Shown: in pieces, positions 14,459 through 18,719 of the stretch
How the letters are laid out: every line of letters starts with the position of its first letter
How positions within the stretch are numbered: position 1 is the stretch's first letter
Virus record (IMG/VR): IMGVR_UViG_3300044625_001067
Location: 33,473 to 97,472 of that record
Reading direction: 5' to 3' (one strand)
Origin: a virus
DNA length: 64,000 nucleotides
Made by a program: the position numbers and the translations under genes
Notes under the pieces: model-generated
Told to the model about the DNA's origin: nothing
Databases searched by the model: none
The model's input: the letters and a program-made list of their open reading frames with translations, nothing else

Positions 14459-14860
14459 TCATTGCATAACCTGAACACAAGGAATCCCAAGTTCTCTCAC
14501 AACTTTACAGTTGTCTTGGTTGTCGTCGTACCAAAGCGAAGGGCGTCCGAAATCTTCAATAATTGCGAGAGCTTGCTCGGTCTTAACGTAGTGGTCGGGG
14601 AGATCGTCCCCGTCCTCTCTCATGTATAAGGCGTCGAACTTAACACCCACACTTTGTAGCCAGTTTTCTGAGCCGGCTCGAAGACGATTTGGGCGAGCAG
14701 TGGATATAAGGATTGTAACACCGGATACAGCTAGAGATACTGCAAGTTGAACGAGTGGCAAATTGGCTCGAAGCGTTGCAACATTGTCTTCGTAATACCA
14801 CTCACTCGTGAGTGTCATGTCAATATCAAACACCACTAAGGGGTTATTTTTAGGCGTCAC
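14459..14860 (-). CDS. HAD-family phosphatase homologous to the 3'-phosphatase domain of T4 polynucleotide kinase-phosphatase (Pnkp)
   Basis: DxDxT motif VVFDIDMTLT vs T4 Pnkp VIFDVDGTLA. C-terminal YDDNQDNCKVVRELGIPCVQV vs T4 [21 protein letters not shown]. The T4 sequence is recalled from memory. Confidence 0.7.
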   Translation of the reverse strand: MTPKNNPLVVFDIDMTLTSEWYYEDNVATLRANLPLVQLAVSLAVSGVTILISTARPNRLRAGSENWLQSVGVKFDALYMREDGDDLPDHYVKTEQALAIIEDFGRPSLWYDDNQDNCKVVRELGIPCVQVMQ

Positions 14861-15120
14861 GACATAAGGGCAATGTGAATGCTGTCTAGCTGTTGAAGCA
14901 ATATGTTCATTTTCGCTGCCTCGCTCACAGCCAAATCAAGCTGTCCACGTGTCACATAAGTGGCAACTACCTGACTCGCTTGTGCCCTAAAGGTGGAGGA
15001 AAAGGCTTCGGCACACTGAGCTAAAACGAGCCAGTCTGAGTTGGGGAGACTCACCGAACGGTGAATTTCTTCACCTTCACCTTGTGTAAAGACCTGTGTA
15101 ATCGCGGAAGTATGGCTCAT
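14857..15120 (-). CDS. hypothetical protein (87 aa)
   Basis: ORF translationally coupled to the upstream gene by a 4-nt overlap. Confidence 0.4.
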   Translation of the reverse strand: MSHTSAITQVFTQGEGEEIHRSVSLPNSDWLVLAQCAEAFSSTFRAQASQVVATYVTRGQLDLAVSEAAKMNILLQQLDSIHIALMS

Positions 15121-15239
15121 GGGTTAGGATTGTGGTTTTTTGGCCATTTCAAGCTGAGCCTTGTAGAGTGCCACCCTCTTCTGGGTACCCTTCTTAACAA
15201 GGTTCAGATGGTTGAGTGTTCGAGTGGGGTTTGTTGGTT

Positions 15240-15479
15240 TCATTGGGTATGGTGTCGCCTCTTGTGAAGTTGGTTTAGGAAGAGAAAGCCCCCTATCTTA
15301 GTGAAAACCTCGATTGGTTGCCACCTTAGGTACGAAGAGGTAAGATACCACTTTCCTTCGGCATTTTTGTAAACTTTCCCCACGAGTACATCCGTAGTGG
15401 GGCACTTGTAGGTTACGAACGATGGGAAGTTAAACCCAACTCGAAGGGGTGACTTGTACGGGGCAGGTTTATCGTACAC
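15240..15479 (-). CDS. hypothetical protein (79 aa)
   Basis: ORF 15240..15479. Confidence 0.4.
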   Translation of the reverse strand: MYDKPAPYKSPLRVGFNFPSFVTYKCPTTDVLVGKVYKNAEGKWYLTSSYLRWQPIEVFTKIGGFLFLNQLHKRRHHTQ

Positions 15480-15798
15480 GGTTGACCTCCTCCCAGTAGT
15501 CTGATCGTGGTTTGCTGGTTTTCGTCACATCTCTGACTCGGACCGTAGCTTTTCGCTTTCTAAGCATTTCAGCCAAGGTGGCCCTGAGTTTAGGGTCCGT
15601 GGTGGTATTATAGGCTTGTTCGAGTCTCTCGTAAACTGCGTCCCGGTTCGGGATCTGCAGGTTTTCCTTGTTCAGTACCTCAGAGCTGAGGTCCAGGGTT
15701 CCTAGTTTACCTTGGATTTTGTTCCTTCCGAAGTTCCCCGAGACTCTGCCGTTCGTTCGCAGTTTCGGCTTAATTTTGCTTAAGTTGCTGTTTTCCAT
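15469..15798 (-). CDS. hypothetical protein (109 aa)
   Basis: ORF 15469..15798. Confidence 0.4.
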   Translation of the reverse strand: MENSNLSKIKPKLRTNGRVSGNFGRNKIQGKLGTLDLSSEVLNKENLQIPNRDAVYERLEQAYNTTTDPKLRATLAEMLRKRKATVRVRDVTKTSKPRSDYWEEVNRVR

Positions 15799-15801
15799 GT
15801 C

Positions 15802-16323: not shown

Positions 16324-16611
16324 CTAGTTAGGGACTGGACTGTGTATTAACCCAAAGACGTTCAGGGTTATTCCAACTACGATGACAGCTACCACATCCC
16401 ACTGCTTTTTCTTTACAAAGAAGGGAAGGCTCAGAGTGCTCCCTGTAATCAGAATTAATAGGCCCACCTTACGGTCCAAGAAAAGCAAAACAAATTGTCC
16501 AACTACCAGCGCAATATTTCCAAGGATGCGGAGGTAAGTGAGTCTGGGGCGGACACGTGGGTATTTCATGGTCCGAAGGTGTGATAGGTAGTTATTCGTC
16601 CTACGAAACAA
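16324..16611 (-). CDS. small membrane protein (2–3 predicted TM helices)
   Basis: Hydrophobic stretches ILGNIALVVGQFVLLFL and LLILITGSTLSLPFFV. Confidence 0.45.
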   Translation of the reverse strand: MFRRTNNYLSHLRTMKYPRVRPRLTYLRILGNIALVVGQFVLLFLDRKVGLLILITGSTLSLPFFVKKKQWDVVAVIVVGITLNVFGLIHSPVPN

Positions 16612-17485
16612 CCTTGAGTGTTTTCAGAATCTTGCTCAACCGTGCTGGCTTCAAGTACGACTTGAACTCTAAACCCTCAAAGAGTGCTTCTACACTCTGT
16701 TCAGACGGCGGTGAAGACGCGTACCACGACAAATCGGGAACATCGTCCTCAAGAGTGACCAAGCGAAGGTTACTAAAGAATGTGGACGCAGTTGAAACCA
16801 CCTTAGGATGGAACGCGATTCGATCAGCGAGCGACAGCTCTGAGTTTGTACCGCTGGTGTGGCACTCTTGGATTATCTTCACAGCGGTCTTCGGGCCAAC
16901 GCCGGAGACACCTGATATGTTATCTGAGGAGTCCCCAGACAAAGCCTTGAAGAACTTGACGTCTGAGGGGGGAACACCGAAGTGCCCCTTAACACCCTCA
17001 ATGTCAACCAGCTCCATTTTCTTAGCTGAGTTGAAGAGAAGCACCTTTACTCTGTCGTTGACAAGCTGAAGCAGGTCCTTATCGCAAGTCAAAATGTGTA
17101 CTTCACTGTACCCAGGAGAGTTACGAGAAATATGAGCTACAACATCGTCCGCCTCAAAACCCTGGGCACCCACTGGCGAAAAACCAAGAGCTGGAAGGAC
17201 GTCTTCAACCAGGAGGGAAAGGTCGGAGTAGTGCTCAACGCTGGCTTTTTCTCGATTCGCCTTATAAGTACCGGATTCTTTCTTGCGAAAGTTTCCACCT
17301 TTATCTGTACAAGGAACTACGCAATCGTACTCGTACTGAGCCATCACGGCAAGTAAGGCGTTGCAAAACCCATAAGTCCCAGTTACTGGAGCTCCATAGC
17401 TCGTAACCATTTCACCCATAGCTCGACGGAGAGCTGAGCGCGAGCGAAAAAATAGCGCGGATGTGTCTACGAGAAGCAGTTTCAT
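16601..17485 (-). CDS. 5'-3' exonuclease / flap endonuclease (Pol I N-terminal domain, T4 RNase H / T5 D15 family)
   Basis: N-terminus MKLLLVDTSALFFRS. CTDKGGNFRKK. Acidic clusters GFEADDV...DKD are typical of the FEN/5'-exonuclease fold. Confidence 0.8.
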   Translation of the reverse strand: MKLLLVDTSALFFRSRSALRRAMGEMVTSYGAPVTGTYGFCNALLAVMAQYEYDCVVPCTDKGGNFRKKESGTYKANREKASVEHYSDLSLLVEDVLPALGFSPVGAQGFEADDVVAHISRNSPGYSEVHILTCDKDLLQLVNDRVKVLLFNSAKKMELVDIEGVKGHFGVPPSDVKFFKALSGDSSDNISGVSGVGPKTAVKIIQECHTSGTNSELSLADRIAFHPKVVSTASTFFSNLRLVTLEDDVPDLSWYASSPPSEQSVEALFEGLEFKSYLKPARLSKILKTLKVVS

Positions 17486-17530
17486 TGTTTAGGTTCTGGT
17501 GTGGTTTTAGTGTCGGAACTTGGCTCCAGA

Positions 17531-18253
17531 CTAGTCCTTGCGAGGTTGCCGTGAAAATTGGTGAAAAGTATTTTGAGTGACGTTGTAAGCGGTTAGGCGA
17601 CCCTTCGTCTTAATAAACGCACCCGTATCTATATTTACGCGTTGTCCCGTCACAACGGGAAGGTGGTCCTGAGGTGGTTCCTCGAAGTTGGTTGGTGTGT
17701 GACCATGAACGACTTTCTTCAGTCGTGGGTTCCACCCTTCGAACTCCGGCCCGTATCTCAGAAAAGGTTGTCGAATCCACAGGAGTGCCTCGCCTCTCCC
17801 ATCGACAATGAGCTTTGCAGGGTCGTGGCCAGGGTACACCCCTGCGTGAATGAAAAGGGTATCTCCAATTGTCATATACAAGGGTAGATTTCGAATCCAC
17901 TCCTTATGTTCCCTCTCCATGTCACCCACTTGGTCATAGTTTCCCCCGTTTCGAATCCACAGAACGTAACTACTTGGGTCGTCAAGGGCGTCAAGAAACA
18001 TCCTCTCGTGGTTCCCCATCAGGGCATAAAAGGCTTGAAGCCCCCAACTTTCCGGATCGTAGAGGAGCTTTTTCGTATACTCCAAAACTTTCAGGTCGCC
18101 CCTACCACGATCAATCATGTCACCTAAAAGTATGACGGTGGCTTGAGACCCTTTCACCCAATTTAGAAATTGTTCGAAAAGAGTCCAGGTCGCGTGAATG
18201 TCCCCCAGAGCAACTACGTCCCCCGGCTGTATTTTGTTGTCGTAAGTTATCAT
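17531..18253 (-). CDS. calcineurin-like metallophosphoesterase (Ser/Thr-phosphatase or ApaH-like)
   Basis: Motifs VVALGDIHA (GDxHG), LLGDMIDRG (GDxxDRG) and GNHE. Start placed at an internal Met (18253) abutting the kinase gene. Confidence 0.7.
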   Translation of the reverse strand: MITYDNKIQPGDVVALGDIHATWTLFEQFLNWVKGSQATVILLGDMIDRGRGDLKVLEYTKKLLYDPESWGLQAFYALMGNHERMFLDALDDPSSYVLWIRNGGNYDQVGDMEREHKEWIRNLPLYMTIGDTLFIHAGVYPGHDPAKLIVDGRGEALLWIRQPFLRYGPEFEGWNPRLKKVVHGHTPTNFEEPPQDHLPVVTGQRVNIDTGAFIKTKGRLTAYNVTQNTFHQFSRQPRKD

Positions 18254-18257
18254 CTTG

Positions 18258-18719
18258 TCAGTATATGAAGTCAATACGGTGGAAGGGTTCGTTGATATTC
18301 TTAAGGGAAGCTTGTAAGGAGGCGTGCATGCGCTCAATCACTTCTTCCGGAACCCTACGCTCGCGAGAAGCATTCTGGCGCAGGCAAACGGTGAGGGGCT
18401 TGTCAAGGACAACAGCGGTGATTTTGCAGTAACCGTACGAGTTTAGCATAGCAACTGCTTCCTTGCGGTAAGCTGCCTTGTAGTGGGTACCATCCATAAC
18501 TATAGTCCGACCTACACTCTCCTCCAGAATCTCAAGCATGCGGTCGTGGATTTCTACGTAATTTCCTTGAATGTCCGCGTTCCCGTAGAGCTCAGCGCGG
18601 ATTTCATCGCCGGAAATTACAACGGCATCTGGGTGAAGCTCTAGTAGCTTAGCCACATGGGTTGACTTTCCGGAGCCAGGGGCACCGACCATCACGTATG
18701 CTTCGAGGTTGTTTTCCAT
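18258..18719 (-). CDS. polynucleotide 5'-kinase (P-loop) homologous to the kinase domain of T4 Pnkp
   Basis: P-loop VMVGAPGSGKST vs T4 Pnkp LTIGCPGSGKST. ISGDEIR vs T4 INRDDYR, which holds the catalytic Asp. 153 aa, kinase domain only. Confidence 0.7.
   Translation of the reverse strand: MENNLEAYVMVGAPGSGKSTHVAKLLELHPDAVVISGDEIRAELYGNADIQGNYVEIHDRMLEILEESVGRTIVMDGTHYKAAYRKEAVAMLNSYGYCKITAVVLDKPLTVCLRQNASRERRVPEEVIERMHASLQASLKNINEPFHRIDFIY

Follow-up and report, generated by a model that had tools for sequence, protein, structure and literature searches.

Does this virus encode the two domains of a T4-type polynucleotide kinase-phosphatase (Pnkp) as separate genes, or has it assembled its end-healing enzymes from modules of different descent? 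The question is raised by a stretch of 64,000 nucleotides (positions 33,473 to 97,472 of the IMG/VR virus record IMGVR_UViG_3300044625_001067), hereafter termed the window, in which a first-pass annotation made from the letters and their translations proposed that one open reading frame (ORF) for a HAD-type 3′-phosphatase and another for a P-loop kinase are the split halves of the phage T4 enzyme. Both ORFs are present on the minus strand as described there, and they are indeed separate genes about 3.4 kilobases (kb) apart, with genes for a metallophosphoesterase (MPE) and a 5′-3′ exonuclease between them. Our analysis indicates that the end-healing activities of this virus are carried as separate single-domain genes, the core of which is a kinase-MPE pair with its own promoter-like element. 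We consider it fairly probable, though by no means assured, that these genes make up a modular end-healing kit, in which the kinase-MPE pair and an extra HAD phosphatase serve RNA ligases of the Rnl1 and Rnl5 types. The sequence comparisons described below favour independent assembly of these modules over fission of a T4-type gene.

The source of the window is a large uncultured phage. Contigs nearly identical to it in metagenomes span 88-200 kb, related ones measure 200-280 kb, and no near-identical cultured phage was found when a 5.5 kb query was compared by megablast with 50,697 phage records. Among the genes tested, the MPE gene has the nearest counterpart in a cultured phage, Synechococcus phage S-CBWM1, the two being 41% identical. 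The region from 12.3 to 20.9 kb of the window is a series of minus-strand ORFs, which includes the following genes.

18258..18719, minus strand: stand-alone polynucleotide 5′-kinase (Pnk), 153 amino acids, assigned from AAA_33, TIGR04075, a profile search of the PDB and the predicted fold
17531..18253, minus strand: lambda-phosphatase-like binuclear metallophosphoesterase (MPE), 240 amino acids, assigned from Metallophos, PHROG 246 and a profile search of the PDB
16601..17485, minus strand: 5′-3′ exonuclease/flap endonuclease, third gene of the kinase block (5_3_exonuc_N, E = 3e-33; 5_3_exonuc, E = 5e-13)
16324..16611, minus strand: 95-amino-acid ORF, last gene of the kinase block (PHROG 2318, E = 6e-14), an 81-amino-acid gene call in relatives
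14857..15120, minus strand: 87-amino-acid ORF with no family match, the upstream partner of the HAD gene, whose start its stop codon overlaps by 4 nucleotides
14459..14860, minus strand: stand-alone T4/Pnkp1-type HAD (DxDxT) polynucleotide 3′-phosphatase domain, 133 amino acids, assigned from PF25109, a profile search of the PDB and the predicted fold
12713..13591, minus strand: thymidylate kinase, in the same block as the HAD gene

Assignment of the kinase and the HAD phosphatase

The product of ORF 18258..18719 is a P-loop kinase of the polynucleotide kinase clade with its catalytic residues intact. It matches Pfam AAA_33 (E = 1.7e-22), and its top NCBIfam model is TIGR04075, the bacterial Pnkp model, matched over positions 11-148 (E = 5.4e-15). 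When a profile of the kinase family was compared with the PDB, the kinase of C. thermocellum Pnkp (CthPnk, 4GP7) was the best match (E = 3e-25, 92 bits), followed by PSTK (8e-18, 68 bits), the Capnocytophaga gingivalis enzyme Pnkp1 (4.5e-14, 56 bits) and T4 Pnk (3.7e-9, 40 bits). An AlphaFold model of the protein (pLDDT 93) gave the same first choice, CthPnk accounting for the best six Foldseek matches with a TM score of 0.82 and 28% identity.

The alignment with the T4 kinase domain that the first-pass annotation had reported holds up as well. With a T4 Pnkp reference sequence identical to that of 1LTQ, hhalign returned a probability of 97% over 132 columns, with INRDDYR standing opposite ISGDEIR and with K18, S19, D38, R41, T78 and R119 of the window kinase opposite K15, S16, D35, R38, T86 and R126 of T4. 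The correspondence with CthPnk takes in one residue more, in that K18, S19, D38, R41, T78, R119 and R122 equate to K21, S22, D38, R41, T80, R120 and R123, which is the published catalytic set of that enzyme (PMC3902929). The predicted catalytic residues are thus K18 and S19 in the P-loop, D38 as the general base, R41, T78, and R119 and R122 as lid arginines. Across 28-31 homologues, residues K18, S19, D38, R41 and R119 show little or no variation.

Several other kinase families were considered and set aside. The first-pass annotation had allowed for the kinase being an unrelated P-loop enzyme, such as an adenylate or gluconate kinase, and for the phosphatase belonging to a HAD clade without affinity to Pnkp; profile and structure searches placed neither protein in this way, given that adenylate kinase reached 4e-5 at best against 3e-25 for polynucleotide kinase. 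Zeta toxin and KTI12 were rejected together with adenylate and gluconate kinases, and D38, R41 and T78 of the acceptor site are invariant. A 5-hydroxymethyldeoxyuridine DNA kinase, suggested by a Tet/JBP gene lying nearby in relatives, is matched only at E = 0.048 (PF18748) and only over the P-loop. A PSTK-like tRNA kinase was also set aside, although PSTK is the second-best solved homologue. The solved PSTK chains run to about 260 amino acids against 153 here, and at its C terminus PSTK carries a domain that binds tRNA.

The product of ORF 14459..14860 is a complete HAD 3′-phosphatase domain of the T4/Pnkp1 type, as the first-pass annotation had recognized. It matches PF25109 (HAD_PNKP) over profile positions 4-139 of 143 with 55 bits (E = 1.3e-14), well above the gathering cutoff of 27.6. 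A profile built from 16 homologues retrieves from the PDB Pnkp1 at 2e-10 and the phosphatase of T4 Pnkp at 4.5e-10, with MDP-1 as the next fold at 1e-3, and even the single sequence finds the Pnkp1 phosphatase domain as its best sequence match (E = 3e-5). All of the best 17 Foldseek matches to its AlphaFold model (pLDDT 80) are T4 Pnkp or Pnkp1, with a TM score of 0.80 and 26% identity. Generic nucleotidase or acid phosphatase membership was rejected, because such Pfam matches all fall under their cutoffs and MDP-1 scores 1e-3 against 2e-10 for Pnkp1.

The motifs quoted in the first-pass annotation, VVFDIDMTLT opposite VIFDVDGTLA and DDNQDN..CVQV opposite DDRTQV..CWQV in T4 Pnkp, are confirmed by these alignments. 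The one difference apparent in the alignment is the stretch after DxDxT, where the window protein has three residues fewer than the T4 protein and a Glu stands opposite T4 R176, a residue that matters in the T4 enzyme. The key residues are D12 (the nucleophile), D14, T16, T54, R56, D89, K93, D112 and D113, and equivalents of T4 D165, D167, S211, R213, D254, K258, D277 and D278 are all retained; more specifically, D12, D14, T54, K93, D112 and D113 lie opposite D165, D167, S211, K258, D277 and D278. In T4 Pnkp, D165 is the nucleophile and D167 the acid-base residue, S211 and K258 contact the phosphate, and D278 is a metal ligand (PMC3592404).

Could this HAD protein act on mononucleotides, such as 3′-dNMPs from degraded host DNA or intermediates of DNA hypermodification, and so belong to nucleotide metabolism, rather than act on polynucleotide ends? 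The thymidylate kinase gene in the same block and the Tet/JBP dioxygenase gene within a few kb in relatives would suit such a role, and the T4 Pnkp phosphatase hydrolyses 3′-TMP as well (PMC3592404). Nevertheless, the sequence and fold are specific to the Pnkp phosphatase clade and not to the nucleotidase HAD clades, and we find the mononucleotide explanation rather improbable.

Descent of both proteins from one T4-type gene is another possibility. The kinase and HAD ORFs match both halves of PHROG 505, annotated as polynucleotide kinase, over positions 4-145 (E = 1.6e-18) and 158-291 (E = 3e-18) of its 295 positions; the best sequence and structure matches of the HAD protein are T4 Pnkp and Pnkp1; and the kinase aligns to T4 Pnk with its catalytic residues in register. 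By this account, fission of a T4-type gene yielded two proteins that still work together, and the MPE is functionally unrelated to them. However, the kinase is far nearer to the kinase that is fused to an MPE in bacterial Pnkp than to T4 Pnk, to which it is just 20% identical. Judged by sequence, the kinase belongs to the bacterial Pnkp (C. thermocellum) clade, and the MPE follows it in the order of the first two modules of that enzyme.

Gene order and promoter-like elements

To place the locus among its relatives, we rely on a survey of 96 loci with kinase relatives drawn from metagenomes, IMG/VR and cultured phages, the six-frame ORFs of which were scanned with hidden Markov models made from the window proteins; the metagenomic search returned 382 kinase homologues at E ≤ 0.001. 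The close set comprises 52 loci with 32 distinct kinases at 49-99% identity, and the distant set comprises 31 distinct viral kinases at 28-42% identity, examined with flanks of up to 10 kb on each side.

In every one of the 52 close loci, and hence for 32/32 distinct kinases down to 49% identity, the kinase gene is followed by the MPE gene, and the two are fused in none. The MPE start lies 2-183 nucleotides past the kinase domain throughout. In the window the MPE ATG comes 4 nucleotides past the kinase stop codon (TGA-CAAG-ATG), and a 4-nucleotide or overlapping junction is kept from 99% down to 49% kinase identity. The exonuclease gene comes after the MPE gene in most close relatives.

The HAD gene is a looser companion of the kinase. 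A HAD_PNKP gene is present in the locus for 24 of the 32 distinct close kinases, at positions ranging from 8.3 kb upstream to 5.6 kb downstream, and kinase and HAD are fused in 0/52 related loci. For those who favour gene fission, it is pertinent that the two genes lie within 6 kb of each other on one strand for 23/32 distinct kinases, or 24/32 if locus L056, with its HAD gene 8.3 kb upstream, is counted. Against this, no HAD gene was found in the full 10 kb flanks on both sides in L007 and L050, nor in 10 kb downstream in L054 and L055, and none lies in the flanks, of up to 10 kb on each side, of any of the 31 distant viral kinases. In the L007 contig, a tandem-duplicated HAD gene lies 13.8 kb downstream of the kinase.

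A separate partner of the HAD gene is also apparent. Among the 40 HAD-bearing loci, 35 have a homologue of the 87-amino-acid ORF directly upstream of the HAD gene. One of these is L056, in which this ORF and the HAD gene are upstream of the kinase, having moved together. The overlapping genes of the window are probably co-translated. The 87-amino-acid protein has no Pfam or PHROG match; a 135-amino-acid relative (L010/L011) contains a segment resembling TacA1, a ribbon-helix-helix antitoxin, which is missing from the window protein. The tandem arrangement of HAD_PNKP genes at 13.8 kb is found in locus L099 (3600-4633 of contig KRAE22-1_SAMEA8798174 scaffold_23), where proteins of 134 and 210 amino acids, the second with a C-terminal extension, are encoded after an 87-amino-acid ORF, 13.8 kb from a 64%-identical kinase and 2.4 kb upstream of a Tet/JBP dioxygenase gene.

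The first-pass annotation had placed the kinase and HAD genes in one transcription unit. This is not established, and a repeated composite element argues for a division. The element consists of a GC hairpin (GGGCGGTTTCCCGCC; also GGGCGGTTTYCSCC), TTGCC or TTGTT, a spacer of about 17 nucleotides, and TATAAT, TATAGT or TATACT. With 2.0 copies of the hairpin motif expected, the window has 32, nearly always between genes and oriented with them, and the AACGGTATARTA part of the element occurs 7 times against 0.23 expected. The element usually lies 40-100 nucleotides upstream of the next start codon. The copies of interest are these.

18726..18768, minus strand: kinase copy, with hairpin GGGCGGTTTCCCGCC, TTGCCC, a 16-nucleotide spacer and TATAAT, ending 7 nucleotides before the kinase ATG
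16241..16286, minus strand: second copy, with a T-rich tract after the hairpin, between the 95-amino-acid ORF and the ORFs leading to the HAD gene
20864-20908 (minus strand), 33960-34005 (minus strand), 62590-62632 (minus strand) and 429-473 (plus strand): further copies

The element probably combines a phage promoter with a hairpin before it that is terminator-like or serves processing. Given that one copy precedes the kinase and another precedes the HAD block, each block has its own promoter-like element.

These observations bear directly on the fission account. The invariant neighbour of the kinase is the MPE and not the HAD phosphatase, which is linked instead to the 87-amino-acid ORF; the position of the HAD gene is variable; promoter-like elements lie between the kinase and HAD genes; and both kinase-less HAD_PNKP proteins and stand-alone Pnk genes occur in cultured phages. 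We therefore judge fission of a T4-type gene to be unlikely. Thus, the first-pass proposal stands insofar as both proteins are Pnkp-related and unfused, and falls short in calling them halves of a T4-type enzyme, given the kinase scores and the constant MPE neighbour. The HAD protein is unlikely to be the half that the kinase lacks. We regard it as a second, independently inherited 3′-end-healing module, which forms a cassette with the 87-amino-acid ORF in the next promoter-delimited block.

The metallophosphoesterase and the proposed role in RNA repair

If the kinase has a 3′-end-healing partner, the gene that follows it in all close loci is the candidate. The MPE matches Pfam Metallophos (E = 1.3e-12) and PHROG 246, which is NinI-like (E = 7e-41), and its profile retrieves lambda phosphatase (1G5B) from the PDB over the full length (3.9e-30) and then the phosphatase domain of CthPnkp (4J6O, 1.2e-19). 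It carries the DxH, GDxxDR, GNH(E), H and GH motifs of the lambda phosphatase/NinI-like family, and in 22 homologues there is no variation at D18, H20, D45, D48, R49, N81, H82, H136, H185 or D209, nor at any metal or phosphate ligand. All of the residues named except D48 are candidate counterparts of bacterial Pnkp residues (Asp187, His189, Asp233, Arg237, Asn263, His264, His323, His376 and Asp392, in the same order), although lambda phosphatase scores better. The protein also matches PHROG 8238, a family of the kinase-MPE-ligase type, at positions 174-307.

The module after the kinase in bacterial Pnkp is an MPE of the lambda phosphatase type, which removes 2′,3′-cyclic phosphates, and the substrates of lambda phosphatase likewise include nucleoside 2′,3′-cyclic phosphates (PMC3675462). 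The cyclic phosphodiesterase activity of both CthPnkp and lambda phosphatase is the subject of characterization in PMC2190708. On these grounds we regard the MPE as a candidate 2′,3′-cyclic phosphodiesterase and 3′-phosphatase partner of the kinase. A second, divergent metallophosphoesterase is encoded at 33217-33954 on the minus strand (Pfam Metallophos, E = 4.6e-6), preceded by the promoter-like copy at 33960-34005.

Possible sealing partners for the kinase and the phosphatases are encoded elsewhere in the window. The two RNA ligases and the Thg1-like enzyme that the first-pass annotation had linked to RNA end healing are all present, and the window also contains 12 tRNA genes.

38217..39296, minus strand: RNA ligase of the DraRnl/Rnl5 type, with an OB fold at the N terminus (TIGR02306 RNA_lig_DRB0094, E = 1.8e-58, above cutoff; Pfam RNA_ligase; PHA02142 OB)
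52198..53430, minus strand: T4 Rnl1-type RNA ligase (RNA_lig_T4_1, E = 2.9e-13; PHROG 562, E = 6.5e-38)
3243..4025, plus strand: Thg1-like 3′-5′ nucleotidyltransferase (PF04446 Thg1, E = 3e-25), part of the tRNA-repair context but outside the kinase/phosphatase unit

Ligases and MPE genes also recur near the distant viral kinases. Among these 31, an MPE gene is found in 16 loci, recurring within 1-2 kb of the kinase, an Rnl5-like ligase in 18, usually 1.4-2.4 kb upstream, and an Rnl1-like ligase in 10. The family assignments, the intact catalytic residues and the conserved gene order are observed; the division of labour, the substrates and a role in RNA repair are what we infer, the last two from the T4 and bacterial paradigms, from this ligase linkage in distant relatives and from the tRNA-centred content of the window. 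In the route we envisage, a host ribotoxin or anticodon nuclease would cut tRNA or another RNA to leave one end with a 2′,3′-cyclic phosphate and the other with a 5′-OH. The MPE would then open the cyclic phosphate and remove it, or remove a 3′-phosphate, the kinase would phosphorylate the 5′-OH, and the phage ligase of the Rnl1 or Rnl5 type would seal the break. The kinase and MPE together would thus match the healing half of bacterial Pnkp without being covalently joined. To this the HAD protein probably adds a Mg-dependent 3′/2′-phosphatase, with a specificity that overlaps that of the MPE or complements it.

A number of observations weigh against this modular end-healing kit, and most of them concern the MPE. 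In a search of 1.8 billion representative proteins, its nearest relatives were nearly all stand-alone proteins of 200-290 amino acids resembling lambda phosphatase or NinI, and the bacterial Pnkp architecture occurs in 0 of the best 150 of 5054. TIGR04075 gives no match to the MPE at E ≤ 0.01, although the ApaH and PrpA/B models do match it, and no kinase gene adjoins the MPE homologue of phage S-CBWM1, so that the window MPE could have an unrelated substrate. Given the stand-alone relatives, the lack of a TIGR04075 match and the S-CBWM1 arrangement, the kinase-MPE pair would fall outside the bacterial Pnkp family, even though it may work like the first two modules of that enzyme. The authors of the CthPnkp phosphatase structure also deem RNA an unlikely physiological substrate of lambda phosphatase (PMC3675462). 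In addition, the RNA ligase genes are 19-35 kb from the kinase gene and thus have no operonic link to it, generic promoter and terminator scans did not rise above shuffled controls, and, as the promoter and terminator assignments are motif-based, read-through from kinase to HAD is possible. Finally, the flap endonuclease encoded after the kinase-MPE pair is as much in keeping with DNA end processing as with RNA repair.

The relatives of the MPE also dispose of one idea regarding its origin. A recent fission product of bacterial Pnkp would be expected to have relatives of about 850 amino acids with the MPE domain beginning near residue 180, and none was found among the best 150 of 5054. Two relatives, of 705 and 727 amino acids, carry the MPE domain at their N terminus.

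Given these affinities, the MPE might instead be a protein phosphatase of the NinI/lambda type or an ApaH-like Np4N hydrolase that has no part in end healing, in which case its adjacency to the kinase would reflect shared expression timing, and the kinase would act alone or with the HAD protein. The best matches of the MPE (NinI-like proteins, lambda phosphatase, PrpA/B and ApaH), its stand-alone relatives and the S-CBWM1 homologue without an adjoining kinase all accord with this explanation. It does not readily account for the adjacency of kinase and MPE in every close locus and in phage pf16, for the MPE genes close to distant viral kinases, or for the CthPnkp domain being the second-best solved homologue. 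On balance we consider it unlikely that the MPE is a bystander.

The DNA-centred alternative takes the kinase, MPE and flap endonuclease genes together as a block that cleans nicks with 5′-OH and 3′-phosphate ends and removes flaps during replication, recombination or the repair of nuclease damage, with no function in RNA repair. The three genes are contiguous between two promoter-like elements, their order is kept in most close relatives, and, according to the entry titles, DNA oligonucleotides are bound in some of the structures solved for CthPnk and T4 Pnk. Nevertheless, the distant viral kinases are linked to RNA ligases and not to DNA ligases or a flap endonuclease, and the tRNA genes, the Thg1-like gene and the two RNA ligases of the window point towards RNA. 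We consider a purely DNA-directed function to be improbable.

A more elaborate version of the modular arrangement can also be envisaged, in which two parallel and non-redundant 3′-healing routes operate: a Mn-dependent MPE working with the kinase, and a Mg-dependent HAD phosphatase working with the 87-amino-acid protein as a specificity or docking subunit (e.g. as a tether to a ligase, the kinase or damaged tRNA). These routes would feed different ligases, of the Rnl1 and Rnl5 types, and answer different ribotoxins. We offer this version as a speculation with little probability of being correct in full.

Comparison with other systems and further genes of the window

How unusual is the three-gene arrangement? 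T4 Pnkp (PseT; 1LTQ, 5UJ0) has the same DxDxT phosphatase fold as the HAD protein and the same P-loop Pnk fold as the kinase, and both phages have an Rnl1-type ligase. In T4, however, the two domains form a single polypeptide of 301 amino acids, whereas here they are encoded by two genes in separate promoter-delimited blocks, and the window kinase scores far lower against T4 Pnk than against CthPnk. C. thermocellum Pnkp, of the Pnkp-Hen1 system (4GP7, 4J6O), is the closest solved homologue of the kinase and has the same N-to-C order of a kinase followed by a lambda-type Mn-dependent MPE. It differs in joining kinase, MPE and C-terminal ligase in one chain of about 850 amino acids, whereas the window pair consists of separate genes with no ligase domain after them, and the window MPE is nearer to lambda phosphatase than to the C. 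thermocellum phosphatase domain. No methyltransferase turned up among the approximately 55 window ORFs that were scanned, although no search was aimed at Hen1. In the C. gingivalis Pnkp1-Rnl-Hen1 system (4XRP, 4XRU), the Pnkp1 phosphatase is the best sequence match of the HAD protein and the ligase is also a separate protein, but kinase and HAD phosphatase are fused in Pnkp1, which assembles with Rnl and Hen1 into a heterohexamer, whereas they are separately encoded in the window.

Parts of the arrangement can be recognized in cultured phages. Pseudomonas phage pf16 has the same kinase-MPE gene pair, annotated as ‘ATPase’ followed by ‘NinI-like phosphatase’; in Rhodobacter phage RcXuper a stand-alone Pnk gene adjoins that of an Rnl1 ligase; in the Drexlerviridae phage BEK12A the protein named ‘Pnk’ is a HAD_PNKP domain without a kinase; and in Bacillus phage vB_BcoS-136 a kinase-HD fusion adjoins an Rnl5-like ligase. 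In none of the cultured phages examined does one genome region bring together a stand-alone Pnk with both an MPE and a HAD_PNKP protein, and our literature search found no paper characterizing a phage kinase-MPE pair that is unfused or a HAD_PNKP protein that stands alone. According to a survey of 224 jumbo phages, polynucleotide kinase and the HAD phosphatase are ‘usually fused’, with calcineurin-like or HD phosphatases in place of the latter in a few (PMC7824862). Outside phages, Mucorales fungi provide a precedent for dispersed healing and sealing, in that a separate RNA ligase, 5′-OH kinase and phosphodiesterase replace the trifunctional Trl1 in tRNA splicing (9D8A, 9DRZ). Mucorales kinases are among the structural matches of the window kinase, but they are eukaryotic and distant (TM score about 0.64), and the phosphoesterase is of another type.

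Unfused modules are therefore already known, having been noted in comparative genomics and annotated in cultured phages, and the window represents a three-gene unfused variant with good conservation across a clade of large uncultured phages. The general picture is unchanged, as phages are known to combine RNA ligases with modules of the kinase, HAD, HD and calcineurin types against host tRNA nucleases. Should the modular reading prove correct, a phage clade widespread in metagenomes would base RNA healing on a free-standing C. thermocellum-type kinase, a lambda-type phosphatase and a T4-type HAD protein. These would be small, separable enzymes for probing the substrate specificity and coupling of repair modules, and they would give a physiological setting to lambda/NinI-like phosphatases, the natural substrate of which is not yet known (PMC3675462).

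Some further features of the window and its relatives merit brief description. The gene order changes past the thymidylate kinase gene: the near-identical relatives L001 and L002 (15991-20146) carry DUF6915, SprT-like and Tet/JBP genes there, while the corresponding part of the window (about 9700-12330) has plus-strand genes and a seven-tRNA array within 9737-11334 instead. The gene tables, compared unaligned, suggest a rearrangement or mosaic boundary at this point. In the same two relatives, a gene corresponding to that of a 492-amino-acid window protein (28662-30140, minus strand; DUF2828, E = 2.5e-37; DUF7788, E = 3.6e-50) lies some 10 kb upstream of the kinase gene.

At its 3′ end, the gene for the Rnl5-type ligase is abutted and partly overlapped by a homing-endonuclease-like ORF (37374..38507, plus strand; PHROG 314, E = 6e-9), and a second fragment (37083..37325, minus strand) matches only the last 60 or so ligase residues. 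The arrangement resembles what a homing endonuclease would leave behind on insertion at this end of the gene.

Upstream of the kinase, with a 73-amino-acid ORF (18795..19016) in between, a cytidylyltransferase-like protein is encoded at 18970-19473 on the minus strand, possibly an NMN adenylyltransferase to judge from weak matches. Genes for nicotinamide phosphoribosyltransferase and a PRPP synthetase-like protein are found at 59396-60910 and 60907-61848, both on the minus strand. Together, the three genes suggest a phage NAD-salvage pathway.

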